Assembly: GCA_964388035.1 (NCBI GenBank)
Contig: CAYLZE010000100.1
Span: forward strand, 1-16,491
Direction: 5' to 3'
DNA from: an uncultured archaeon
GTDB taxonomy: Archaea; Asgardarchaeota; Lokiarchaeia; Sigyniarchaeales; SOKP01
DNA length: 16,491 nt
The position numbers were made by a program, and so were the translations under genes. Shown here piece after piece: positions 1,487-16,253 of this stretch. Position 1 is the first letter of the stretch; each line of letters starts with the position of its first letter. The notes beneath the pieces were generated by a model that was not told the DNA's origin, did no database searches, and saw only the letters and a program-made list of their open reading frames with translations.

Positions 1487-2425
1487 TTATTTTGCGAGAT
1501 AGTTTTCCATGAACTTTTCGCCAAAGCGCTCCGAGACGGTTCGCACTTCTTCTATTCTATTTAATTCCATCATTAGCATGGCACTTAATACTTGATTTCC
1601 TAACATCATTGCAGAAAAGACAAATTTTCCTACTTCTGGCAAGGTTTCTGCTTTATAGATAACCCCCGTCTTATTAACTTTCACGGCACGTGGAATTAAA
1701 GAAGCTAAATCTGCACTCATTTCTTGTGGAAAGGATACTTCTACTTCAATGGGCAACTCAACGTGTAATGCTTTAAACTTGGGGAGATTTGAAAGAACCT
1801 CAGCTGTTTCTCTTTCAATCATGGTTCTAGCTTCATCTATTGGCAAGCAGAGGGTGGTTCCCTTGTCTTTTGATGTTTTCACTTGCACGGTTTCCGTCCC
1901 TGGCAAGAGTTCTGACACCTCTTTCGCTAAAACTTGATCTCCGGATACAAGGATTATTGGAATATTATATTCAGATAGAGCAATTGCGATTAAGTATGCT
2001 TCGTTTACCATCCTTCCATTAACTTTAACAATCGGACCTGCACTGATGGTATGACTCATGAACCCTTCGTTACTTCCTCCCATCGCATGAAATCCGATAA
2101 GGATCGCGGCATCCACGGTTTCATTCACAAAAGCATTCATTTTTTTTGAAAAGCAATCCCCCAAGAGCTTCGTTCCCTTTTCCACTTTTTTAGGAATCAA
2201 GTGCTCTTGGTTAGCACTATGAAAGTTAACAATACCAATCTCGCTGGCTCCTCCCTTCCTGAGCCCTCTAATTGCAGCATTTATATCTTCTGTTAATAAT
2301 AATCGACCCGATTCTTGGTATTCTTTTTTACCTTGAATCACTTGTCTCCAATTGTCTACTCCGGATACCCCTTCCATGTCTGCAAAAATTACCACTTTAT
2401 ATCCTTTTTCATGTTTTTCGGACAT
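1487..2425 (-). CDS. M55 family metallopeptidase (D-aminopeptidase DppA-like)
   Basis: N-terminal ADMEGVSGV Zn-binding motif, then NFH, IGFHA, MSHT, VNE, VSGD and VKTS motifs. Purine-rich SD-like GGATGGGGT upstream. Confidence 0.88.
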   Translation of the reverse strand: MSEKHEKGYKVVIFADMEGVSGVDNWRQVIQGKKEYQESGRLLLTEDINAAIRGLRKGGASEIGIVNFHSANQEHLIPKKVEKGTKLLGDCFSKKMNAFVNETVDAAILIGFHAMGGSNEGFMSHTISAGPIVKVNGRMVNEAYLIAIALSEYNIPIILVSGDQVLAKEVSELLPGTETVQVKTSKDKGTTLCLPIDEARTMIERETAEVLSNLPKFKALHVELPIEVEVSFPQEMSADLASLIPRAVKVNKTGVIYKAETLPEVGKFVFSAMMLGNQVLSAMLMMELNRIEEVRTVSERFGEKFMENYLAK

Positions 2426-2719: not shown

Positions 2720-4099
2720 TTAAATTTGTAAAGTTTTTTCGCGTTTTTCTTGGTGGAGTGCTTCGAGTTTTGCTTGCATTTCTTTAAGTTTTTCTCCATG
2801 CAAGGGATAAAAATAGATGAAAATCAAGCTAATCGCGTTGAAAATGGCGGGAACCAGCAAAAACAATATTTTAATTCCCACTAATGCCGAAGCCGATTGG
2901 ATACTAGCACCTTGCACGAATCCAAAAACAGTAAATATTACCGTTGCCAGAATGGGCCCAAGACTATTCGCTGGTTTGGTAAAAAGGGCATTAATCCCTA
3001 AAAACATGCCTTCTCTCCGGGTGCCATGCAATATTTCATCTTCATCAACTGACAGGTACATTAATGCTCCCACAGTATAAACACCATACCCTCCGAAAAA
3101 TGTGTTCCATATAAGACCTATCCAAATTAATAGCTCTAATCCGGGAATAAGAATTAGGTAAAAAACAATTAATGCTCCGACGACTCGCAAAACTCCAAAC
3201 CTTAAAATGACTTTCCGCATGCCCCATGGTTTCTGCAATTTCAAGCATACGAAATAAGCAAAATATCCCACAAAGATAAAAATCATGAAATATAAGACCG
3301 TGGCCACGCCGCTATTAAAACCTAGAACAAAGTAAAATGCAAAAAGATAACTAAGACCTATACTTCCCACGAATACACCGCAAAAATTATAACCAATAAA
3401 TATCATGAATGATTTAGATTTGACGGTCGCTTTTACGGATTGCCATAATGGGAAGGGTTGATCTTTCTGGAATTCTGGTTTTTCTTTACTTACCACGACA
3501 ACCACCCATAAGAGAACCGTAGAAATAATAGCAATGATGATCATTAGCATTTGAAAGGAGGCATCGGTGGCTTTCATGGGACCCACTATGATAAGAAAGG
3601 GTAATAAAATGACAACGCCAAGGAGGAGCATCCAAAAATTCGCTTTATTCCTCTCACCAATATCCGCCGTCATTTCGGGTAATAATGCCATCCAACAGAG
3701 TACTACCAGGGTTAACATGGTATCAAACAAGCAGATGCTTATCGTAAAATGCAAGAAAATAACTAGTTGATTATCTAAACTCCAAGGAAACCATACCAGG
3801 AGGAAGGTTAATGCCCAAATCGGAGCACCATACTTGATGTAGATGAGCCTCCGACTACCCCACTTCTCTCTGTTTGTCCTATCTGAAAGTTGCCCCGCTA
3901 AAGGATCATTTAAAGCATTAATTGTCATGTAAATCACTTGCCCAATTACAAAAAAAATGGGTAATAATTGCAGATCGTTATAAAATAACTCAATATATTT
4001 GAGACCAAAGACATACCCATAGAGTGCAGTGGGCCCTGCACCGACAGAATATCCCAAGATCTGTCTGAAACTTAGTTTTTCTTTGTTTTGTGTGGACAT
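2720..4099 (-). CDS. MFS transporter, glycoside-pentoside-hexuronide (GPH, MelB/UidB-like) cation symporter
   Basis: About 12 hydrophobic segments; NALNDPLAGQLSDRT...WGSRR motif; VDEDEILHGTRREGMFLG motif; C-terminal FYPL. Start placed at ATG 4099 (the ORF track extends to TTG 4105). Confidence 0.9.
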   Translation of the reverse strand: MSTQNKEKLSFRQILGYSVGAGPTALYGYVFGLKYIELFYNDLQLLPIFFVIGQVIYMTINALNDPLAGQLSDRTNREKWGSRRLIYIKYGAPIWALTFLLVWFPWSLDNQLVIFLHFTISICLFDTMLTLVVLCWMALLPEMTADIGERNKANFWMLLLGVVILLPFLIIVGPMKATDASFQMLMIIIAIISTVLLWVVVVVSKEKPEFQKDQPFPLWQSVKATVKSKSFMIFIGYNFCGVFVGSIGLSYLFAFYFVLGFNSGVATVLYFMIFIFVGYFAYFVCLKLQKPWGMRKVILRFGVLRVVGALIVFYLILIPGLELLIWIGLIWNTFFGGYGVYTVGALMYLSVDEDEILHGTRREGMFLGINALFTKPANSLGPILATVIFTVFGFVQGASIQSASALVGIKILFLLVPAIFNAISLIFIYFYPLHGEKLKEMQAKLEALHQEKREKTLQI

Positions 4100-4398
4100 G
4101 TTCAAGACTTTTTTTTAAATGATATATTACCATTAAAGTTTCTTTCTTTTATATTATTTTTGAAAATTGAACCCTTTCATGTTAAAATTTTTAAATTTAT
4201 TCTGCGATGCATTAATTCTGGTTTTTCCGCTAATCCACGTTTTTGTTAGATTCGTTAATTTAATTGGTTCATTAAGTTTTTTCCTATATCTCTCGGTAAT
4301 ACATTTAACTAGAGCAAGGGGATATATCTCCCATCAAACTATTTTTAATATTGCATATTTATATTATTAGAAAATCACTAAAAAAAAGTTTAAAGATA

Positions 4399-5348: not shown

Positions 5349-5582
5349 TCAATTAATTTTTTCAAATTCAATGGCATTTTTTATGGTTATTTTTTTCAAT
5401 TTATCACTAAATTCTTCTGATTTTTTGATGAATTCTTCCACTGAAGTAAATTTTCGTAATATAATTTTTCCCTCTTGAACTTGAAAAACTATTCTCTCCC
5501 CCGATTTTAGATTTAACATTTTTCGAATTTCTATCGGAATGAGAACTCTCCCGTTATCATCTATTATTGATTCTGCATTCAT
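5349..5582 (-). CDS. AbrB/MazE/SpoVT-family DNA-binding protein (antitoxin-like)
   Basis: IDDNGRVLIPIEIRKMLNLKSGERIVFQVQEGKIILRK matches the swapped-hairpin signature. SD-like AGGTGG upstream. Confidence 0.88.
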   Translation of the reverse strand: MNAESIIDDNGRVLIPIEIRKMLNLKSGERIVFQVQEGKIILRKFTSVEEFIKKSEEFSDKLKKITIKNAIEFEKIN

Positions 5583-5919: not shown

Positions 5920-6144
5920 ATGACGGATAAATCAATAGATATTTCTGAAGAAGTTTATAAAAAGATAAAATATTTGAAACGAAAAGAAGAATCTGTTTCA
6001 GATTTCCTCAATCGAATATTAAGTGAGAAAAATCTAGATTCTAATAATGAATTGGAGGAGATCTCTAAAGATTGGGAAAAAATTGAGAAATTCCTTTATG
6101 AAGATCGTTTAAAAAGTAATATAACTAGAGAAATTGAATTTTAG
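5920..6144 (+). CDS. Archaeal-type VapB antitoxin (DUF217-like, RHH-type N-terminus)
   Basis: KSIDISEEVYKKIKYLKRKEESVSDFLNRIL matches the K-T/S-I-x-I-S-E-E-x-Y...K...ES-F/V-SD pattern. Lies directly upstream of a PIN gene. Confidence 0.78.
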   Translation: MTDKSIDISEEVYKKIKYLKRKEESVSDFLNRILSEKNLDSNNELEEISKDWEKIEKFLYEDRLKSNITREIEF

Positions 6145-6163
6145 ATGATGATTGAAAAATAAA

Positions 6164-6442
6164 ATGGTCGTTCTCGATACTGATTTCATTATTGGATACC
6201 TACGCAAAGCTCCAAAAATTATCGATCTTTTGCGTAATTTTGAAGAAAATAGAATAGATTTAAAAACAACAATTATAAATGTAGGCGAATTATATAAAGG
6301 AGCATATCTTTCAGCTAAAACATCAGAAAACCTAAAAAAAGTTAATAAATTTCTTAAAAGAGTAGAAGTATTGAATTTGAATATTGAGATTATAATTTCA
6401 AAAAATTATTTAAGATCTTCATGCCATAAGGCTTCATTTTGA
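6164..6442 (+). pseudogene. vapC: VapC/PIN-domain toxin, C-terminally truncated
   Basis: MVVLDTDFIIGYLR and TTIINVGELYKGA are PIN N-terminal motifs. Similarity ends at about VEVLNLN (near 6390), where the frame runs antisense into the trpG 3' end. The D-x-x-IAA and T-x-N/D C-terminal motifs are missing. Confidence 0.75.
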
Positions 6443-6983
6443 TGGATTCGGGATGGAATTGAACGCTTTCAACGGGATATTTCTTATGACGAACCGCCAT
6501 GATTGTGCCATCATCTGCCGTAGCCGATATCTTAAGGTCTTGAGGAAAAATGTCACCTTTTGCTGCTAATGAGTGATATCTTATTACTTGGAGCGGATTT
6601 GGAATACCTTTAAAGATCGTTTCTTGATCATGAAATATTTTTGATTCTTTTCCATGCATTGGACCAACTTTTGCTCTTCCAACATATTCTTGGTTTTTAT
6701 CTTCTCCAAAAGCTTCTACAATCGCTTGATGTCCCAAACAAATTCCTAAAATTGGGACTTTATCATAATATTCATTAATAATTGGAATTACTGAACCTGT
6801 ATCATATTTGGGATGACCTGGTCCTGGTGAAATTATAATTTTATCAATATTTAGGGCTTTTACTTGATCTAACGAAATTTTATTATTCTCTATTATGATG
6901 TCAGAATTAGGAGCTAATTGGCAGATATAATTGACTAAGTTATATACGAAACTATCATAATTGTTTAGAAAAAGAATTATCAT
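6390..6983 (-). CDS. trpG: Anthranilate synthase component II (glutamine amidotransferase)
   Basis: NYDSFVYNL, ISPGPGHP, GICLGHQ (catalytic Cys), MHGK, RYHSL and QFHPES motifs. TAATG overlap with the trpE stop codon. Confidence 0.95.
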   Translation of the reverse strand: MIILFLNNYDSFVYNLVNYICQLAPNSDIIIENNKISLDQVKALNIDKIIISPGPGHPKYDTGSVIPIINEYYDKVPILGICLGHQAIVEAFGEDKNQEYVGRAKVGPMHGKESKIFHDQETIFKGIPNPLQVIRYHSLAAKGDIFPQDLKISATADDGTIMAVRHKKYPVESVQFHPESIKMKPYGMKILNNFLKL

Positions 6984-8476
6984 TACTTTAACGCCTCTGC
7001 GATTCTAATTGATTTCAATATGCTATATAATTTATTATAAGTCTCTTTATATTCATCATCGGGTTGACTATCTGCCACAATACCTCCACCTGCTTGAGCA
7101 AAGTATGTTCCATTCTTTCCAAAAAGAGTTCTTATTGCAATAGCAAATGTCATGTCGCCATTGAATGCAAAATAGCCAACAGCACCTCCATACGGACCCC
7201 TCGATTCAGTTTCTAATTCTTGAATAATTTCCATTGCCCTTTTTTTTGGAGCTCCTGAGAGGGTTCCCGCAGGAAATATACTTTTTAAAACCTGATATCC
7301 ATCCAGTGGTGTTTTACTTTTAACTTTACTGACGATATGCTGAACTTTTTGATATTTTTGGATGGACATTAGCTCATAGGTATCAACAGAGCCAGGATAA
7401 GAAACCTTGGCGAGGTCGTTTCTTGCCAAATCCACTAACATGATGTGTTCTGCTTGTTCTTTAGGATCGGAAAGTAATTCTCGCTCCAATTTCAAATCTT
7501 CTTCTTCAGTCTTACCTCGCCTAATCGTTCCAGCTATTGGTACCGTATGAAGCATGTCCTTATTTTTAGAAATTAACGCCTCAGGGCTGCTTCCAATGAT
7601 TTTCACATCATCAAAATTGATATTATACATGTACTGAGAGGGATTCAATGTTCGCAACACCTCGTAAATAAGAATGGGATCAACTTTACTCTCGGTATAT
7701 AGTCTTCTCGAAATCACTGCTTGTATGATATCACCGGCATAAATGTATTCTTTTGTTTTTTCCACCATTCTTGCATGAGCATTCTTGCTGGTATTGGAAC
7801 GGAATCCTGATTCATCAATTTCCTCACTATCAAGGGAAATTTCTTTTTTTTCTTGATTGTCATGATTTCGATTAAAGAGCCTTAATTGATAGCGGATATC
7901 TTTATCTTTAGTATAATCATCTATGCTATTATCTATCATGAATAGGGCATTAGATTTATGAGAATAAACAAGAACCTTGGTATAAAGGCCCATGAGAATA
8001 TCCGGAAACTCCCCGTTAGCTTTATATCCCACGTAAGGTGCCACCACATCATATCCGATGTATCCGAGCATTCCTCCATAGAAAATGTTTCTCGGGAATA
8101 GTTCCGTGAAGGGAAGATTGGAGTAGGGCGTGAGCCTACTTAGAGTATCAAGTGCGATCATGTTATATTTCACGTTATCTTTAAATGGCAAGGGATCATG
8201 GGGCCTCTCTTCAGCAGGATCCTTAGATTCCAAATAACTTTTGACATTTTCTCCCCGGGCTGAAGATACATCGCGGATGGTAAACTGTTCTCCCCTAATC
8301 TCAAGCATAAAATCGGGTTTTAGGGCTATAAAGCTGAAGAGCGTTTCATTGGTATTTGCAGAAGCAGATTCCAGCAAGGCATGTTTCTTTAAATCGTATT
8401 TTCCTACTAAATATTTATAAAAACCAAAAATATCTTTCAAATTTCCAATCTTTTCAATATGTATGTCAAAATCCAT
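6983..8476 (-). CDS. trpE: Anthranilate synthase component I
   Basis: LLES, AGDIIQAVISR, NPSQYM, GSSPE, PIAGT, KEQAEHIMLVDLARND, FPAGTLSGAPK, RGPYGG and QAGGGIVADS motifs. SD AAGGAG upstream. Confidence 0.95.
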   Translation of the reverse strand: MDFDIHIEKIGNLKDIFGFYKYLVGKYDLKKHALLESASANTNETLFSFIALKPDFMLEIRGEQFTIRDVSSARGENVKSYLESKDPAEERPHDPLPFKDNVKYNMIALDTLSRLTPYSNLPFTELFPRNIFYGGMLGYIGYDVVAPYVGYKANGEFPDILMGLYTKVLVYSHKSNALFMIDNSIDDYTKDKDIRYQLRLFNRNHDNQEKKEISLDSEEIDESGFRSNTSKNAHARMVEKTKEYIYAGDIIQAVISRRLYTESKVDPILIYEVLRTLNPSQYMYNINFDDVKIIGSSPEALISKNKDMLHTVPIAGTIRRGKTEEEDLKLERELLSDPKEQAEHIMLVDLARNDLAKVSYPGSVDTYELMSIQKYQKVQHIVSKVKSKTPLDGYQVLKSIFPAGTLSGAPKKRAMEIIQELETESRGPYGGAVGYFAFNGDMTFAIAIRTLFGKNGTYFAQAGGGIVADSQPDDEYKETYNKLYSILKSIRIAEALK

Positions 8477-8509
8477 TATTTTTCTCCTTTTTCTTGCTCC
8501 TTCGTAATT

Positions 8510-9346
8510 TTATTTTAAAGTGGATTTAATTGTTGAGGTAAATTCTATCATATCCGCTTTCATTTGCTCAAAATCGTTCAAATTATTCTTAATGAGTTCA
8601 ATCATCGCTGAACCGATTATTACACCATTTGCCCCACTTTCAAGAATCAATGCTACATGTTCGGGCTTCGATATACCAAAACCCACCAGAACGGGCAATT
8701 TATCTCGGATTTGATGCTTTATTCTCTTGATAGTTTCCCTGGTTATTTGAGCAACCGTTTTCCGCGAGCCAGTCACACCCATGACCGAAATTAAGTAAAT
8801 AAAACCCTTGGCAACTTTTAGGATTCTTTCTAAACGCTCATCAGTCGTTGAAGGTGCAACGAGAAAAATGAGACAAATATCGTGCTTCTCACACGCTTTC
8901 AAGGTCAGGAAAGCTTCCTCTATGGGTAAATCTCCGATTACTATTCCATCCACGCCACTCTTTTTTAACTTGGCAAAGGTATTATCCAAGGATTCTTCAA
9001 TGGTGTCCGCCCCTTGGATTAAAATGTTATAATAAGTAAGAATCACGATCGGTTTCTTTATTTTTCCGTGAACCTCCCTAATTGCATCCAAGGCAAGATC
9101 CGTGTTTATTCCTGCATTAAAAGCTCTCACGTTAGCTTCCTGGATGGTGGGACCATCCGCAATCGGATCGCTAAAAGGAATGCCTATTTCTAAAATGTCA
9201 CTATAAGGTTCAATTGCTAAACAAAGCTCTTTAAATTGATTGATGTTAGGATCTCCTGCCACCAAAAAGGGCATGAAGAACTTATCATTTTTCCATTCCT
9301 CATCATAAAATAATTTCATGAGCCTATTCGAGTTTAATTCTGTCAT
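8510..9346 (-). CDS. trpA: Tryptophan synthase alpha chain
   Basis: AGDP, LEIGIPFSDPIADGPTIQ, YYN, DLPIEE, GVTG, VGFGIS and IIGSA motifs. Confidence 0.97.
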   Translation of the reverse strand: MTELNSNRLMKLFYDEEWKNDKFFMPFLVAGDPNINQFKELCLAIEPYSDILEIGIPFSDPIADGPTIQEANVRAFNAGINTDLALDAIREVHGKIKKPIVILTYYNILIQGADTIEESLDNTFAKLKKSGVDGIVIGDLPIEEAFLTLKACEKHDICLIFLVAPSTTDERLERILKVAKGFIYLISVMGVTGSRKTVAQITRETIKRIKHQIRDKLPVLVGFGISKPEHVALILESGANGVIIGSAMIELIKNNLNDFEQMKADMIEFTSTIKSTLK

Positions 9347-9371
9347 TTTTCATTACTTTCCTAATTGTTGG

Positions 9372-10583
9372 TTAAAATTTTATTTTAAATTCCACATGAT
9401 TTTTTATGATGTCCAAATCTTTTGAACCGCTTCCCGATAAGTTAATTATAACGATATCATCTTCTCCAAAATCTTCCTTATTTTTGTCAAGATATGCCAA
9501 GGCATGCGAGGATTCTAACGCGGGTATGATACCTTCCAAGAGACATAATTTTTTAAAAGCATTGAGGGCTTCCTCATCCGTCGCATCTCCCACCTTTAAA
9601 CGATGAAGGGTTTTTAGGAAACAATGTTCCGGACCAACTCCGGGATAGTCCAATCCTGCGCTAATGGAATGAGTTTCCATAATGTTTCCGTACTCGTTCT
9701 GGAGCAGGTATTGCATTGCTCCGTGTAATACCCCCTTGCGTCCCAATCCTAAAGCGATGGAATGTTTTTGGGTATCCTTTCCCTCGCCTGCCGCCTCAAC
9801 CCCGATCAATTGTACTTCTTCATCCTCAATAAAGTCGAAACTAATTCCAATACAGTTGCTTCCTCCTCCAATACAACTAATAATGGCATTAGGAAGCTTT
9901 CCCTCTGCTTCTAAAATTTGCAGCTTGGTTTCCATTCCAATTACCCGCTGAAATTCCCTCACCATTAAAGGATAGGGATGAGGGCCCACCACGCTTCCCA
10001 TTAGATAGTGCGTGTCATGCACATTAGAAATCCAATATCTTAAACCTTCATTAACCGCATCTTTCAGCGTTTTGGAACCTGATTTGACCGGAACGACTTC
10101 AGCGCCTAATAATTGCATTCTGTATACATTATAGGCTTGTCGCTTGACATCTATTTCTCCCATGAATACCTTAGTAGGCATTCCAAAATAGGCACCCGCA
10201 ATCGCTGTTGCAAAACCATGCTGTCCCGCACCCGTTTCTGCAACCAATTTTGTTTTACCCATCTTTTTTGCCAATAATGCTTGTCCCATGACGTTATTAA
10301 TCTTATGTGCCCCCCCATGATTGAGATCTTCTCGCTTTAAATAAACTTTGCAGCCAATATCTTCACTTAATTTTGCCGCATGATAGAGGGGAGTAGGTCT
10401 TCCACTATACTCCCTTAAAATTTGATAAAATTCATCATGGAAGCTTTCCTGAGCATTAAATTTTTTAAATGCATCCGTTAATTCCATTAAAGCAGGCATG
10501 AGAATTTCAGGAGCAAAAATACCCCCGAACTCTCCAAACTTGCCTAAATCATCCGGATATTTTCCAATATAATCCATATTCAT
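9372..10583 (-). CDS. trpB: Tryptophan synthase beta chain (TrpB1 type)
   Basis: [27 protein letters not shown] (PLP lysine), [33 protein letters not shown] and [12 protein letters not shown] motifs. ATGA overlap with the trpF stop codon; SD AGGTGG. Confidence 0.97.
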
Positions 10584-11239
10584 TTTCCACCTTGAATTTC
10601 TTGTTTTACTTTATTTACTCTTGTTAAAAAATTTTTAATTTTTTCTGGATCCTTTACTCCTTTTTTAGATTCTAAAGAACTGCTGACATCTATTCCAAAA
10701 GGTCGTAAGGTTTTGATTAAATCTTCCACGTTATCTTCATTGATTCCGCCAGCGATGATCAACTTAGCGTGGTTGATTCTTCGCATGACTTCCGTAATAA
10801 TTTCTCGTCCAAATAATATCCCGTTTCCTTCACTACTATCTAAAAGAAAGGCATGGAAATGTTGGTGGTAAGCGTTGATTTGCTTAATTACTTCCTCTTT
10901 ATTAGTCGGATTTACTTTCAACGCTACTATGAACTTTTTTCTTTCGTTCTCCGAAAACTTTTCTAACTCCTTTAAGTCCTTGATTCCGTGTATTTGATAA
11001 TAGTTCACTTTTACTTCCTCCAATACTTGTTGAATATCATTGGAATTTCTAGCCCTAACTACAACCACGATTTTAACATTACCGGGAATTTCTTCTAGAA
11101 GTGGTATCAATTGCCTTTTCTCCAAATTTCTGGGAGATTCGGGAACATTATACACGAATCCAAGTGCCGTGGCGCCAAAATTAATGCAATTTTCAATATC
11201 AATCTTGTTTGTGAGCCCGCAAATCTTTACATGTTTCAT
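10580..11239 (-). CDS. trpF: Phosphoribosylanthranilate isomerase
   Basis: VKICGLT, ALGF, SPR, QIHG, LLDS, AGGI...NV, GIDVSS and GVKD motifs. TAATG overlap with the trpC stop codon. Confidence 0.94.
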
Positions 11240-12063
11240 TAGAGCACCCCTCTTAATTCTAAAACTTTTTCAAATATATCATTAGACTTCATGATCGAAG
11301 TTCCAATCAAAAAGCCATCCACATTGTATTTAAGAAGGTCTTGAATCTCTTCATGAGAATGAATACCGCTTTCACTTATCACTTGCACCTCCTCTCCAAA
11401 AAGTTGTTTAATTTTGGGAGCTAATTTTTTTGAAACAGCTAAATTAATTTTTAAAGTGTTTAAATCGCGATTATTTATCCCTATTAAAGTAGGGTTCGTG
11501 CCATTTTCTTTTAACCGTTTAAGATCCTCCAATTCTTTTTCCTCGTGAATTTCAATTAGCGGTTCTAGATCATGTTGAATTGCCAAATCATGCATTTTCT
11601 CAATATCGACAATGGAATTGATTAAGAGAATATTTTTTACCCCCATTTTCTCTGCGATATCGAATTGAATTTCATCCACAATAAAATCTTTCATCAAACA
11701 AGGGAGGCTAGTTGCCCCCATGACTTTCATTAAATTTTCAAAAGAACCATTAAAGTACTCCGGCTCCGTCAGAACACTTAGACCCACTGCCCCTGATATA
11801 TCCATCTCTCTGGAAATCCTCTCGATATTGAAATTCGATCTGAGCTCCCCTAAGGTAGGAGAAGCGGGTTTTATCTCAGAAATAATGGAAATACCCTTTT
11901 CTTTTTTCAAGGCCACGCTTAATTTCTCCCTGTCATTTTGGATAAAAGCGGCTCCTTCTATTTCATGTAATATCCCTTTTTGTTCTTGGATGGTCTTTTT
12001 CCGACTCTCAACAATCTTTCTCAAAATATCTGACATCTCTTTTTTTATCCTCACATTCTTCAT
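11239..12063 (-). CDS. trpC: Indole-3-glycerol phosphate synthase
   Basis: SEIKPASP, SVLTEPEYFNGS, LMKDFI, LIEIH, IGINNRDL, ISESGI and LIGTSIM motifs. ATGA overlap with the trpD stop codon (alternative start MSDIL at 12036). Confidence 0.95.
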   Translation of the reverse strand: MKNVRIKKEMSDILRKIVESRKKTIQEQKGILHEIEGAAFIQNDREKLSVALKKEKGISIISEIKPASPTLGELRSNFNIERISREMDISGAVGLSVLTEPEYFNGSFENLMKVMGATSLPCLMKDFIVDEIQFDIAEKMGVKNILLINSIVDIEKMHDLAIQHDLEPLIEIHEEKELEDLKRLKENGTNPTLIGINNRDLNTLKINLAVSKKLAPKIKQLFGEEVQVISESGIHSHEEIQDLLKYNVDGFLIGTSIMKSNDIFEKVLELRGVL

Positions 12064-13130
12064 AAAATATGTTCTAATTGGTCTAAATTTCCTCCCGATA
12101 CTTCGATGAGTTCCTTTAATTTTGCAAGTGCACTTCCCGATTCAATTGAGTTTTTTGCAATTTCCATTCCTTCTTGAATATCTCCTACTGCATCTACGCT
12201 CATCAATCCTAAAGCGGAATTCATTAAGACGATATCCCTTTTTGCTCCGTCCTTTTGATTGTTTAAGATCCTTAAAGCTATCTTAAGATTCATTCCAAAA
12301 TCTCCCGATAATATGTCTTGAATCGAACAGTCGGGGATGCCCACATCTTCATTTGTAAGGGCATAGCTCTCCAACTTTCCCTCATGATATTCATGGATAT
12401 AATTAATCCCCACGGGAGCCATCTCGTCAATTCCGCAAGAATTATGAACAGAAAATACATGTTCAGCACCTAATCCCTCTCCTAATACTCTTGCCATTAC
12501 GGGTCCTAAGTATTTATCAAACACTCCTAAAACGTGATATTTAGCTCCCGCGGGATTGGTTAAGGGTCCAAGAATGTTAAAAACCGTCCTAATTTTTAGC
12601 TCCCGCCTCGTGGTAATCGCGTGTTTCATGGCGGGATGAAATATAGGAGCAAACATGAATCCAATTCCTACTTTTTCTATACATTCTTTCACTTTTTCCG
12701 GAGAAATATTGATATTTACTCCCAAACCCTCCAATAAGTCTGCACTTCCACAAGTACTGGTCACGGCTCTGTTTCCGTGTTTTGCAACCGATATACCGGC
12801 ACCTGCCACTACTAAAGCTGAGAGGGTACTCACGTTAAAGGTTTTTATCTTATCTCCTCCCGTTCCGCAAGTATCCAATAACTTGCCCTTTACTTCTGGC
12901 TTTATTGAATGTGCAAGATTCCTCATTGTTTTGGCAAACCCTATTATTTCTTCAATAGTTTCCCCTTTCATGCGTAATGCCACTAAAAAAGCTCCCAATT
13001 GGGAATTCGTAACCTTTCCTGACATGATCTCTCTCATCAAATTTTCTGCTTGGAGGGTCGTAAGGTCAACTCTCTCACTAACTTGCCTAATTCCATCTAA
13101 TATTTCTATTCCAATTCCTACTTCAACCAT
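12060..13130 (-). CDS. trpD: Anthranilate phosphoribosyltransferase
   Basis: LRMKGET, DTCGTGGD, FNVST, KHGNR, GSADLLE, FHPAMK, RTVFNILGPLTNP and GIDE motifs. Confidence 0.97.
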   Translation of the reverse strand: MVEVGIGIEILDGIRQVSERVDLTTLQAENLMREIMSGKVTNSQLGAFLVALRMKGETIEEIIGFAKTMRNLAHSIKPEVKGKLLDTCGTGGDKIKTFNVSTLSALVVAGAGISVAKHGNRAVTSTCGSADLLEGLGVNINISPEKVKECIEKVGIGFMFAPIFHPAMKHAITTRRELKIRTVFNILGPLTNPAGAKYHVLGVFDKYLGPVMARVLGEGLGAEHVFSVHNSCGIDEMAPVGINYIHEYHEGKLESYALTNEDVGIPDCSIQDILSGDFGMNLKIALRILNNQKDGAKRDIVLMNSALGLMSVDAVGDIQEGMEIAKNSIESGSALAKLKELIEVSGGNLDQLEHIL

Positions 13131-13140
13131 TTTTTTCTTT

Positions 13141-13147
13141 CCACCTT
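13141..13147 (-). promoter_or_regulatory. Shine-Dalgarno sequence of trpD
   Basis: AAGGTGG on the minus strand, 10 nt before ATG 13130. The same GGTGG core precedes trpB and the AbrB gene. Confidence 0.65.
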
Positions 13148-13178
13148 ATCTTGATTTATATTTAAAATTTTATTATGA

Positions 13179-13360
13179 AATTGTTCTGAATTTCTAAAAA
13201 TTGAAATTTTTTAAGATTAAGATTAGAATTTTTCCTATTCCTTGCTCTCTCGGTTTTTTAATCAGAATGATAAATTCTGAAACGAGAAGAAGGATTATTT
13301 AGTGTTATTTCAGAAAAAATTCAGAAAACAATTAGCCATTGCAAGTTTCATGCGTGCCAA
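13179..13360 (-). promoter_or_regulatory. Structured trp leader region (candidate attenuator): hairpin, U-tract and competing inverted repeats
   Basis: Imperfect hairpin at 13360-13332; U-tract at 13331-13311; long hairpin at 13294-13239 with perfect core TCAGAAT-5nt-ATTCTGA; long-range inverted repeat at 13333-13317 / 13193-13179. Confidence 0.55.
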
Positions 13361-13419
13361 CGCCAAGCCCAAATCCAAATTAAATGAGTTTTTAAAACTT
13401 TGAAAAAGTTAGCTATCAT
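13348..13419 (-). CDS. trpL: Putative trp operon leader peptide (TrpL-like), 23 aa: MIANFFKVLKTHLIWIWAWRWHA
   Basis: Manual translation: ATG ATA GCT AAC TTT TTC AAA GTT TTA AAA ACT CAT TTA ATT TGG ATT TGG GCT TGG CGT TGG CAC GCA TGA. Four TGG codons fall within 7 codons, on the operon strand, 217 nt upstream of trpD. Confidence 0.85.
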   Translation of the reverse strand: MIANFFKVLKTHLIWIWAWRWHA

Positions 13420-13455
13420 GCTTAATTCATCTAATTTGATCTGAGTTTGTTATAC

Positions 13456-13473
13456 TTATAAAATTCAGTTTCC
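13456..13473 (-). promoter_or_regulatory. Putative archaeal promoter (BRE + TATA box) for the leader and trp operon
   Basis: Minus strand reads GGAAACTGAA-TTTTATAA. The TATA-like box at 13463-13456 predicts a TSS near 13434-13430, just upstream of the leader ATG at 13419. Confidence 0.55.
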
Positions 13474-13589
13474 TTTTTATATCTTCTTCATTCCAATTTT
13501 TAACGGTTCCAATCATAAATTTTAATTACTTTCAAATTAAATACCTTCTATCAGATGTATTACGAAATTATCTATTTTGATTGATGTTC

Positions 13590-16253
13590 ATGAAAAAAGT
13601 AGAAAGGATTACCCTTGATGGGAATTGGATGCTGATGCAAGCGGAACGATCCATTAAAATTACCGCCCAAACCCCTGGCACGGTATTTGAAGCCCTATTA
13701 GAAAATAAGATCATCGAAGACCCTTTTTATGGGGAAAATGAGCATGAAATGGCATGGATATTCGAATCCGATTGGAGTTATGAAGGTACGTTCGAAGTAG
13801 AGGAAAAATTCTTGGAGCATTCTTCCATTTTACTTCGGTTCCACGGATTGGATACTATCGCAAGGGTGACTTTGAATGGATCTTCATTAGGTTCCACCAA
13901 TAACATGTTCATTACTCATGATTTTGATGTAAAAACCCTTTTAAAAAATGGCATTAACGTTTTGAAGTTAGAATTTACGAGTCCCACACGGAAAGCACGA
14001 GAAGAGATCGAACTTCACGGAGATTATTTGAACACCGGACAAGATGCACTTCCCGGAGTTCCTTATTTGAGAAAAGCGCAATACTCTTTTGGTTGGGACT
14101 GGGGTCCTAAATTGCCAGATATTGGGATTTTTAGACCCATTGAATTAATCGGTTTTGATACCGTGAAAATCGAGTCCGTTCACGCTATCCAGAAGTTTAC
14201 TTATAACGAAAATCCCTTAGAAAATGTTGATCCAGAAAGGATTCCTAATATCAAGATAGAGTCTGTCCAATTTAAAGTAAATGTCGAGGTAGATTCAACC
14301 ATGGAAAATATCGAAACTCTTGGCTATACCCTTCACTTGTCCTTAAAATTACAAGATAAGGAAATTATCACTAAGAACGCCCCTCTCAGGACAAAAGTGC
14401 AATCTTTTGAATTTACTATTAATGGTCCTCAATTGTGGTGGACCCATGATTTAGGCACGCCAGAGCTCCATGACTTGACAGTTTCCATTACCAGCGCAGA
14501 ACTAATTGATTATCATTCCCAAAAAATTGGAGTAAGAGACCTACAACTCGTCAGAAAGCCTGATAAGTGGGGTGAAACCTTCTATTTTCTCTTAAATGGG
14601 GTACCCGTGTTTGCAAAAGGTGCGAATTGGATTCCCGTTGACAGTTTCATTCCAAGGGGCAAGAGACTGGGACTTTATCAACAAAACTTGAAAGATGCAA
14701 AAGAAGCGAACATGAATTGCATTCGCGTGTGGGGTGGGGGAATTTACGAGGAAGACCTATTCTATGACCTTTGCGACGAGCTAGGTTTTTTAGTCTGGCA
14801 GGACTTTCCCTTTGCATGTGCGATATATCCTTATCATGAAGAATTCGTAGAAAATGTTAAGATAGAAGCAAGCCAGAACATCAAACGATTGCGACACCAC
14901 CCCAGCCTCGCGTTATGGTGCGGAAATAATGAGATTGAAGTCATGTGGGTATTTGCATTGGTTAATACGCAAATATTAAATTCAAATGAATTCCCAAACT
15001 ATATAAAAAGAATTCTTGATGCTGAAAGAAGTGCAAAAGTAAAAGCTTACGAAGAAGGATATGCAAAAATGTTTAATGAAATCCTTCCTCGACTGGTCAA
15101 GACTCACGATCCCACCCGTCCTTATTGGCCCTCTTCCCCATCAAATGCGAATCCCGAAAAACCCATTGATTTTGAAAATGCGAACTCCACAGATTTCGGG
15201 GACATGCATAATTGGAGCGTGTGGCACGGAGGCAAAGCTTTTAGTACATACCGGACTTGTGATTCTCGTTTCGTGTCCGAGTTTGGGTTTGAATCCTTTC
15301 CATCTCTGAAAACCATCAAGGAATTCTGTCCTCCCGATCAGTTCGACTTTAAATCCCCCATCATGCAAAATCATCAAAAAAATGCTGCGGGAAACAGTAA
15401 GATCATGCGATACATGAAAAAACGCTTTTCAATCCCGCAGAAATTTGAACAACAAGTTATTTTATCCCAAATAACGCAAGCTGAAGCTATTGAATACGGC
15501 GTGGAGCACTGGCGCCAAAATCGGAATGAAAACCATTGCATGGGGGCGCTCTATTGGCAACTCAATGATTGTTGGCCCGTCGCCTCATGGGCATCTCTTG
15601 ATTATTTTGGCCGATGGAAAGCCTTGCATTATCTTGCAAAACGGTTCTATCAACCTCTCTTCGCAAGTGTCAAGGAAGAGCAGGATCTAGTAGAATTCTG
15701 GGTTACTAATGATGGCAGAACGCCTCGTACAGTCACTTTAACCTGGAGTATCTTGAATTCTGGCGGAATCCAACTGATGAGTGGTTCTAAAAGCATGAAA
15801 GTACCCCCTTGCAGTTCACGTATCACGGAAGAGGTGGATACTTCCACCATGAACAAGGACAAAAATGAAATGAGGAATAATGTCATTTTTTATTCTCTCC
15901 GAGATAATGAGAACAATAATTCCATCATCATCCGCGGATTTCGTTTGTTTGACCATCCCAAATTCTTTACCCTCAAGGATCCTCAGCTTTCCCATATGAT
16001 TGAAAAACTACCAGACAAAAATGAAGCCCCCCCTACATATCGAATGACCATTATCGCAAAAAGTATTGCCCTCTACGTGCATATTGAATCTGATATTGTG
16101 GATTTTTTGGCTTCGGATAACTTTTTTTCCATGGAACCCGAAGAATCTCGAACGATTATTTTGAAAATTATTAATAATAAAAAGGCTAAAAACGTTTCAA
16201 ACGAGATAATTAGTAATTCATTTAAAGTCCAATCTCTTTATGATTTGAAATGA
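13590..16253 (+). CDS. Beta-mannosidase, glycoside hydrolase family 2 (likely cytoplasmic)
   Basis: FHGLDT, RKAQYSFGWDWGP, KGANWIP, NCIRVWGGG, WQDFPFAC, WCGNNE (acid/base Glu), DMHNW, FVSEFG (nucleophile) and YWQLNDCWP motifs. No obvious signal peptide. Start is one of 13581, 13584 or 13590. Confidence 0.93.
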   Translation: MKKVERITLDGNWMLMQAERSIKITAQTPGTVFEALLENKIIEDPFYGENEHEMAWIFESDWSYEGTFEVEEKFLEHSSILLRFHGLDTIARVTLNGSSLGSTNNMFITHDFDVKTLLKNGINVLKLEFTSPTRKAREEIELHGDYLNTGQDALPGVPYLRKAQYSFGWDWGPKLPDIGIFRPIELIGFDTVKIESVHAIQKFTYNENPLENVDPERIPNIKIESVQFKVNVEVDSTMENIETLGYTLHLSLKLQDKEIITKNAPLRTKVQSFEFTINGPQLWWTHDLGTPELHDLTVSITSAELIDYHSQKIGVRDLQLVRKPDKWGETFYFLLNGVPVFAKGANWIPVDSFIPRGKRLGLYQQNLKDAKEANMNCIRVWGGGIYEEDLFYDLCDELGFLVWQDFPFACAIYPYHEEFVENVKIEASQNIKRLRHHPSLALWCGNNEIEVMWVFALVNTQILNSNEFPNYIKRILDAERSAKVKAYEEGYAKMFNEILPRLVKTHDPTRPYWPSSPSNANPEKPIDFENANSTDFGDMHNWSVWHGGKAFSTYRTCDSRFVSEFGFESFPSLKTIKEFCPPDQFDFKSPIMQNHQKNAAGNSKIMRYMKKRFSIPQKFEQQVILSQITQAEAIEYGVEHWRQNRNENHCMGALYWQLNDCWPVASWASLDYFGRWKALHYLAKRFYQPLFASVKEEQDLVEFWVTNDGRTPRTVTLTWSILNSGGIQLMSGSKSMKVPPCSSRITEEVDTSTMNKDKNEMRNNVIFYSLRDNENNNSIIIRGFRLFDHPKFFTLKDPQLSHMIEKLPDKNEAPPTYRMTIIAKSIALYVHIESDIVDFLASDNFFSMEPEESRTIILKIINNKKAKNVSNEIISNSFKVQSLYDLK

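Follow-up and report, generated by a model that had tools for sequence, protein, structure and literature searches.

The DNA analyzed here, which we refer to as the window, is a 16,491-nucleotide (nt) contig (CAYLZE010000100.1 of assembly GCA_964388035.1; contig C100 in our numbering) of a 5.47-Mb genome with 33% GC, 211 contigs, an estimated completeness of 96.7%, and an estimated contamination of 7.3%. On its minus strand it carries a seven-gene tryptophan operon, and ahead of the first gene, trpD, stands a short open reading frame (ORF) that ends in a cluster of tryptophan (Trp, W) codons. This leader ORF is the subject of the present study. The features of the locus are as follows.

6390-13130, minus strand: the trpD-trpC-trpF-trpB-trpA-trpE-trpG operon, seven intact genes whose ends overlap or almost abut
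13141-13145, minus strand: a Shine-Dalgarno-like GGTGG motif, 10 nt ahead of the trpD ATG
13348-13419, minus strand: the leader ORF, MIANFFKVLKTHLIWIWAWRWHA, 23 codons plus a TGA stop (ATG at 13419, TGA at 13350-13348)
13357-13377, minus strand: the putative regulatory cluster, in which four TGG codons (W15, W17, W19, and W21) are separated by Ile, Ala, and Arg codons
13450-13463, minus strand: a TATA-like box, TTTTATAAGTATAA, about 40 nt 5' of the leader ATG

The trp locus and its archaeal host

Every one of the seven genes of the operon gives a full-length Pfam match, and the TrpB protein of the window matches TIGR00263 with 589.9 bits. The leader ORF lies on the same strand as trpD, 217 nt from the trpD ATG (13130). 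Its TGG codons occupy 13377-13375, 13371-13369, 13365-13363, and 13359-13357, which places four Trp residues within seven codons and the final one two codons ahead of the stop. The surrounding 450-nt intergenic region has a GC content of 12 to 30%, rising to as much as 50% in the patch of Trp codons. A reading made earlier from the sequence alone (the sequence-only reading) had described a 23-codon minus-strand ORF between a TATA-like box and trpD; we recovered the same ORF with an identical peptide sequence. The four alternating TGG codons near the stop and the AT-rich setting, also described there, are confirmed by the sequence and by the GC profile.

A scan with the TATA consensus returned its top match at -45 relative to the leader ATG, and the TATA-like box would put the transcription start approximately 13 to 18 nt 5' of that codon. 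From the TATA-like box to the ATG, the 5' untranslated region of the window resembles those of three relatives (L004, L005, and L046). The presence of the GGTGG motif before trpD argues that trpD is translated from an mRNA carrying a 5' leader. A scan of the whole window against Rfam returned no family at its gathering score, including the bacterial Trp leader (RF00513, Trp_leader) and the T-box (RF00230); a permissive scan (E ≤ 10) of positions 13100 to 13520 gave spurious small nucleolar RNA and microRNA matches only, and no tRNA was detected in the window. Nor did any ORF of the window give a regulator-like Pfam match, in a search that did not include the TrpY model itself, which agrees with the earlier remark that no trp regulator gene is visible in this stretch.

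Several lines of evidence bear on the identity of the host. The nearest relatives of the window's TrpD, at 63 to 71% identity, are encoded on contigs named as metagenome-assembled genomes of Promethearchaeota, Promethearchaeia, or Hodarchaeota, and a second tier at approximately 50% identity comes from Bathyarchaeia and Hadarchaeales. A closed genome of the same order contains two full-length matches to the archaeal small-subunit (SSU) rRNA model, at approximately 1,460 to 1,470 bits. In one relative (G017), a gene for the TATA-binding protein TBP lies 10.6 kb from a leader-bearing trp operon on a single 436-kb contig (C1), and in the window's own genome TBP shares a contig (C21) with cimA, a gene to which we return below. 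The TBP search was controlled on 14 genomes, among which it found matches in the four archaea only. Because of the names of the relatives, the SSU rRNA match, and the TBP linkage, we assign the leader element to the Archaea; by these sequence markers it is archaeal and belongs to a Lokiarchaeia-type branch of the Asgard group. The earlier suggestion of an archaeon, possibly Asgard, is thereby borne out.

Conservation and specificity of amino acid-rich leaders

We took a census of short ORFs (8 to 45 codons, with ATG, GTG, or TTG starts) in the 3,411 regions upstream of crude gene calls in this genome. Only 2 of 12,181 such ORFs contain four Trp residues within eight positions, and these two are located ahead of trpD and ahead of a second gene, trpB2. 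A tblastn search with the seven Trp proteins of the window found tryptophan genes at these loci only, the trp operon and trpB2. Contig C89 has one additional W-rich ORF in the vicinity of a gene resembling class I aminoacyl-tRNA synthetases (KMSKS motif; family not scanned); this ORF was rejected as a false positive because it lies inside a neighboring 900-amino-acid ORF in another frame.

The leader is also conserved among relatives. A short ORF of 14 to 46 codons ending in W-x-W-x-W(-x-W) is present in 23 of 27 distinct trpD upstream regions, with tails such as WFWVWCWHA, WFWAWRWRA, WQWPWRWQ, and WTIWAWRL; these ORFs sit 130 to 250 nt 5' of trpD or of an extra 85-codon first gene. Of 35 Trp leaders, 30 have their last Trp codon one or two codons away from the stop, and the residues between Trp codons are biased toward Q, R, and P. 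Although the N-terminal halves are too divergent to align, the frame remains open. Upstream of trpB2, a leader is found in 18 of 29 relatives of the same family, and W-x-W leaders in weaker versions occur at 11 of 13 loci in other families of the order. By comparison, approximately 60 trpD loci of non-Asgard archaea (Bathyarchaeia, Hadarchaeales, and others) have no comparable ORF within 2.5 kb, although trpD is perhaps not the first gene there. The comparison of relatives' upstream regions proposed in the sequence-only reading thus reveals a Trp-rich short ORF that is kept in position, in frame, and in its Trp codons while its N-terminal half drifts. The genome-wide count and this conservation together exclude a chance origin of the ORF.

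Three trpD leaders (L004, L045, and L046) have exchanged two or three Trp codons for Cys (TGG to TGT) while retaining frame and stop, as in a tail reading STWFCICCWHA; judging from their sequences, these leaders may be decaying or may be functional with fewer Trp codons. The 85-codon ORF between the Trp leader and trpD has no Pfam family but a conserved segment (...GPEKSKTAKFIAENY...); it is present in L002 (1230-1487, plus strand), L006, L036, L037, and L040 and absent from the window operon. With the window query, no TrpD orthologue was found in a genome of the same genus (G001, 96% complete), and the same holds for several genomes of the family. Of 121 genomes in the order, 105 contain trpB2, while the distribution of the complete trp operon is patchy.

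Leaders of like design precede three further genes of the genome (G000), in addition to trpD.

G000:C27, L113:2054-2134, minus strand: a second Trp leader, VSTLKLHSWAWHWLWR, with a GTG or TTG start, 160 nt 5' of trpB2
G000:C21, L146, about 2186-2245, minus strand: an Ile-rich leader, MNRIIPKIGIIIIDIIGII, 113 nt 5' of cimA
G000:C113, L189, minus strand: a Phe-rich leader, MKLNSSFEKLFFTLFTSPRE, 218 nt 5' of pheS (G000:C113:11232-12224)

The trpB2 gene encodes a member of the TrpB-like family NF009057 (647.9 bits), and cimA encodes citramalate synthase (TIGR00977, 672.9 bits), whose reaction is the first in isoleucine synthesis by the pyruvate route. Among 24 relatives, 21 retain the Ile leader in the form MK.KIIP...IIIGII(II) followed directly by the stop, at a fixed spacing of 106 to 133 nt, and the Phe leader occurs in 11 relatives with the pattern ...FFxFF(I/N)(L/P)PRE before the stop. 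All four leaders (trpD, trpB2, cimA, and pheS) are thus rich in the amino acid cognate to the downstream gene; such a match, read here from the sequences, is a hallmark of ribosome-mediated sensing. The Ile and Phe leaders share the design of the Trp leaders, and a Trp-specific binding protein is therefore insufficient as an explanation. A search for leaders at other amino acid genes had been proposed on the basis of the sequence alone, and the conserved Ile-rich leader before cimA and Phe-rich leader before pheS are its yield; the search of upstream short ORFs in this genome found no His-rich leader, and the upstream regions of ileS, valS, leuS, and metS contained nothing convincing, the ileS contig stopping 182 nt upstream of the gene.

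In light of its conservation, the copy at trpB2, and the Ile and Phe counterparts, the leader ORF is very likely a Trp sensor that is read by the ribosome and controls the trpDCFBAEG operon. These same observations support the translation-dependent Trp sensor envisaged in the sequence-only reading.

The other genes of the window can be described briefly. Downstream of trpG lie a MazE/AbrB-like antitoxin gene (5349-5582, minus strand) and a VapB-like antitoxin gene (5920-6144, plus strand), and a weak PIN-domain ORF (6152-6442, plus strand) overlaps the 3' end of trpG; all three are unlike a trp regulator. The divergent neighbor on the other side (13581-16253, plus strand) is a GH2 beta-mannosidase-like gene of 890 amino acids, and the window also carries an MFS_2 sugar transporter gene (2720-4105, minus strand) and a D-aminopeptidase gene (1487-2425, minus strand).

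Predicted RNA folds and possible outputs of the proposed sensor

How the reading of the leader might be passed on to the operon was approached through RNA folding, and the relevant features of the window leader are listed here.

13320-13373, minus strand: a predicted hairpin whose 5' arm consists of the W17-W21, His, and Ala codons, with the stop near the loop and the 3' arm abutting the U6 run
13314-13319, minus strand: the U6 run (TTTTTT), a candidate premature termination site, 29 nt past the stop codon
13325-13328, minus strand: a U4 run upstream of the U6 run
13226-13322, minus strand: a predicted long-range helix (minimum free energy [MFE] structure) in which 13322-13311 pairs with 13237-13226 and encloses an inner hairpin (about 13294-13240)

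We folded 57 leaders as the RNA present when the polymerase arrives at the first U-rich tract. Without a ribosome, the predictions contain a single sizeable structure, a hairpin that overlaps the 3' end of the ORF, at -9 to -34 kcal/mol in Trp leaders and -1.4 to -7.5 kcal/mol in the Ile leaders, which are AU rich. Placing a ribosome on the stop or on the last regulatory codon leaves next to no predicted structure, most leaders then having 0 to -5 kcal/mol. For the window hairpin, the corresponding values are -9.3 kcal/mol when free and -2.4 or 0 kcal/mol with the ribosome on the last Trp codon or the stop. The 5' arm contains the Trp codons or the last Ile codons, and approximately half of the Ile leaders have a hairpin whose 3' end lies 1 to 2 nt 5' of CUCUUUUU. 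In Phe leaders, an 11- to 14-bp hairpin of -17 to -24 kcal/mol starts within the final three codons, often with UGCGG and a U-run after it; the 5' arm of this hairpin begins approximately 8 nt past the last Phe codon, which in these models is within reach of a stalled ribosome. The genome's own pheS leader has a 13-bp hairpin of -18.7 kcal/mol with the last codons and the stop in its 5' arm. Separate 2:3 or 3:4 helices, as in the classical four-segment switch, were not found between the stop and the first U-tract.

The Trp leaders fall into types, and the structure of the B type is supported by covariation. Alignment A1 comprises 28 B-type leaders; the window leader is of the divergent A type. 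RNAalifold applied to the whole leader gave a 5-bp inner stem only, and the remaining helices were defined manually before being tested. In the inner stem, the last Trp-Arg-Trp codons pair with sequence 3' of the stop (GGCGU with ACGCC), and compensatory changes replace this pairing by GGUCU with AGACC. Over 25 specified pairs, 88% of the cells are paired, versus 28 to 50% when the partners are slid, and double-sided changes occur at 12 pairs versus 6.9 ± 1.6 in shuffles (0 of 500 shuffles reach 12). A covariance model (R1) built from 26 B-type leaders matches the genome's trpB2 leader with 41.4 bits (E = 2e-5). A kissing pair between a CAUUGG motif and the CCAAU loop of a downstream hairpin was rejected by eye because its mismatches lack compensation.

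Additional elements lie farther downstream. In the stretch that separates the Trp leader ORF from its gene, B-type leaders have a strongly conserved second hairpin of 45 nt (UGUGCAUUA ... UUGAUUUCCAAU ... UAAUGA.ACACA) about 100 nt after the inner stem, with compensatory changes; it occupies A1 columns 159-205 (e.g., in L120, L125, and L008), is found in the genome's own trpB2 leader (L113), and is absent from the A-type leader of the window. The 3' base of this hairpin (ACACAU) is also able to pair with a downstream AUGUG(C). In the genome's own Ile leader, the opening codons (AAUAAUUCC) are complementary to the closing codons (GGAAUUAUU), and a 12-nt element 3' of the stop (GAAAUUUUAAAC) has a perfect complement approximately 50 nt further downstream. 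The long-range helix of the window is predicted in comparable form in six of the seven other A-type leaders and, in the MFE structure, would bury the U6 run in a read-through transcript.

Oligo-T marks gene ends in this genome: runs of T ≥ 6 are found in 47% of 3' flanks, versus 24% for A ≥ 6, and a T7 run follows trpG. The pyrimidine-rich, G-poor tract past the leader hairpin is similar to these gene ends. In the trpB2 and cimA classes, the zone 20 to 60 nt past the stop is 50 to 65% U and 2 to 6% G, while in trpD leaders the U-rich zone is weaker, with G at approximately 10%. Runs of U ≥ 5 are present in 16 of 19 trpB2 leaders against a background of 53%, and this class is at most the only significant one. 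Since T ≥ 6 occurs in 28% of any 90-nt 5' regions, the U6 run of the window is unremarkable by itself. Archaeal termination at U-tracts proceeds in cooperation with aCPSF1 (PMC8716108, PMC7515710).

We infer co-transcription of the leader with trpD, stalling of the ribosome, and termination as the regulated step. A promoter 5' of the leader would drive transcription of leader and operon together. When charged tRNA-Trp is scarce, the ribosome would stall at the four terminal UGG codons and cover the 5' arm of the hairpin, the hairpin would not form, and the polymerase would continue into trpD; when Trp is ample, the ribosome would complete the ORF and depart, the hairpin would form, and transcription would stop within the U-rich tract, whether intrinsically or aided by aCPSF1 or FttA. 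Among the models considered, direct occlusion is the simplest one that would fit all leader classes with the correct regulatory sign. On balance, a Trp-sensing leader peptide with a stall-blocked hairpin and relief of termination is probably the best overall explanation of the locus. Premature transcription termination by hairpin occlusion, taken by itself as the output of the sensor, is a more tentative proposal, which we regard as credible and a little short of probable.

A number of findings weigh against termination by hairpin occlusion. The window hairpin in an 81-nt context reaches -12.4 kcal/mol, with z scores of +0.14 to +1.28 against shuffles, and is thus not significant alone, since its stability does not exceed that of shuffled sequence; in relatives the significance is modest, with z scores of -2.6 to +0.2. 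Model R1 places its match in the window correctly (13316-13398, minus strand) but weakly, at 18.4 bits and an E value of 0.77. Within 90 nt of the stop, U ≥ 5 is found in 8 of 16 trpD leaders, against the same 53% background, and a consensus terminator scan found no bacterial-type terminator in the window leader. To our knowledge, a dependence of archaeal termination on hairpins is not established. A TATA-like TTTAAATATAAA located 20 to 35 nt 5' of trpD could be a separate, second promoter. A ribosome waiting at the stop would likewise prevent hairpin formation, so that the model requires either rapid release of the ribosome or pausing of the polymerase. Finally, FttA is hypothesized to terminate transcription upon uncoupling from translation (PMC11616081), and an action of this kind by itself would give the opposite regulatory sign.

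The Trp sensor might instead have another output, with refolding of the 217-nt leader affecting initiation of trpD translation, cleavage or stability of the mRNA, or a protein bound at the U-tract. Simple termination does not account for the long, partly conserved leader past the hairpin, the long-range helix predicted in seven of eight A-type leaders, or the covarying and strongly conserved 45-nt hairpin of B-type leaders; the background frequency of U-runs in trpD leaders points the same way, and Cys-rich leaderless small ORFs (sORFs) of mycobacteria are, according to a preprint (bioRxiv 10.1101/834739), cysteine-responsive attenuators of operons. Set against this are the resemblance of the post-hairpin tract to the genome's gene ends and the predicted accessibility of the ribosome-binding site, which stays constant at 0.43 to 0.52 whether the leader is free, or has a ribosome on the last regulatory codon or at the stop, in three leader classes. 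A specific version in which the Shine-Dalgarno sequence is masked is unsupported, since pairing probabilities of the ribosome-binding site are equal in the free, stalled, and at-stop states of the 57 leaders. We consider another output for the sensor somewhat unlikely.

Two further explanations dispense with the ribosome as sensor. The periodic UGG-NNN-UGG spacing of 6 nt is reminiscent of the triplet repeats bound by Bacillus subtilis TRAP, and the intervening codons are skewed to Q, R, and P, as might be expected if the repeats were bound by a regulator of RNA or DNA, either TRAP-like or a repressor, in which case the reading frame would be incidental. However, a search of the 96.7%-complete genome found no homologue of TrpBP (PF02081), which was detected in the B. 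subtilis control; the ATG, the open frame, and a stop one or two codons past the last UGG are retained despite upstream divergence; and a like architecture with Ile and Phe codons stands before cimA and pheS. A binding site with an incidental frame is accordingly very unlikely. The ORF might instead be an independent small gene for a trans-acting Trp/Arg-rich peptide, or a chance ORF; short Trp/Arg-rich peptides can be bioactive, and some bacterial leader peptides work in trans (peTrpL, PMC7298713). The count across the genome and the conservation, both given above, rule out chance, and a trans-acting peptide is at odds with the confinement of conservation to the Trp cluster, with the linkage to Trp genes only, and with the exchange of Trp for Cys codons, frame retained, in L004, L045, and L046. 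We regard this last explanation as extremely improbable.

Significance and relation to known systems

Leader-peptide attenuation is a textbook bacterial mechanism, and our full-text literature search found none described in any archaeon. The terms "attenuation" and "leader peptide" are absent from a review on archaeal transcription-translation coupling (PMC8116511), "attenuation" is absent from the FttA structure paper (PMC11616081), and the uORF4u paper asserts the action of upstream ORFs (uORFs) in archaea in general terms only. The leader described here is very probably a ribosome-read amino acid sensor of a kind that we found described for bacteria only. It is conceivable, although we would stop short of calling it probable, that leader-peptide attenuators (for Trp, Ile, Phe, and probably more amino acids) are deployed throughout the genomes of Lokiarchaeial archaea, and that in each of them a stall-blocked hairpin averts premature termination at U-tracts by a Pol II-like polymerase.

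[quoted passage not shown] Within a single Asgard genome the signature recurs for three amino acids, and it extends across the family. It offers a testable case, with defined sequences, of whether translation feeds back on transcription or RNA fate in archaea, including the lineage closest to eukaryotes. It also suggests that functional ORFs of 16 to 25 codons escape annotation in Asgard genomes, and these may be a prokaryotic counterpart to the regulatory uORFs of eukaryotes.

The characterized archaeal trp control is that of TrpY of Methanothermobacter, a Trp-responsive DNA-binding repressor acting at the trp promoter; the Asgard element, in contrast, is an ORF in the leader rather than a DNA-binding protein. 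It also differs from the TRAP-regulated leaders of Bacillus, which have 9 to 11 GAG/UAG repeats, in having four UGG triplets and no PF02081 match in the genome, and from TnaC-type arrest peptides, which have a conserved sequence and sense the free amino acid within the tunnel of the ribosome, in that only the W-x-W cluster is conserved and the other residues are free. The polycysteine sORFs of mycobacteria differ in being bacterial and in having consecutive rather than alternating codons. Their output is reportedly largely independent of terminator formation. As described in a preprint (bioRxiv 10.1101/834739), they resemble the Asgard leaders in being unannotated ORFs, rich in a single amino acid, at or near the 5' end of the transcript.

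The attenuator of Escherichia coli pheST has a Phe-rich leader, pheM, and pheL is a further case (PMC3082878). The Asgard pheS leader is similar in being Phe rich and in standing ahead of a Phe-tRNA synthetase gene, but the archaeal uORF ends within the 5' arm of a single 11- to 14-bp hairpin, and there is no relationship in sequence. In the pyrBI and pyrE attenuators of E. coli, a translating ribosome blocks a terminator hairpin that overlaps the leader ORF; these systems sense UTP through polymerase pausing and use bacterial intrinsic terminators. Occlusion by the ribosome of a hairpin overlapping the leader ORF is likewise predicted here, whereas the Asgard leader is proposed to sense an amino acid through its cognate codons.

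The trpL leader of E. coli and Salmonella (RF00513) invites the most direct comparison. The Asgard leader differs from it in its archaeal host, with a Pol II-like polymerase and TATA/TBP promoters, in its four alternating W-x-W codons as opposed to tandem WW, and in its much greater length (217 nt) with extra predicted structure; it does not match RF00513, and instead of a 1:2/2:3/3:4 switch, which was not found, a single hairpin is apparently occluded directly, according to the predicted folds. The two have in common a short ORF that lies in the 5' leader and has its Trp codons grouped immediately ahead of the stop, the participation of these codons, predicted in the Asgard case, in a hairpin with a U-run after it, and the proposed logic by which a stalled ribosome changes the fold of the RNA.

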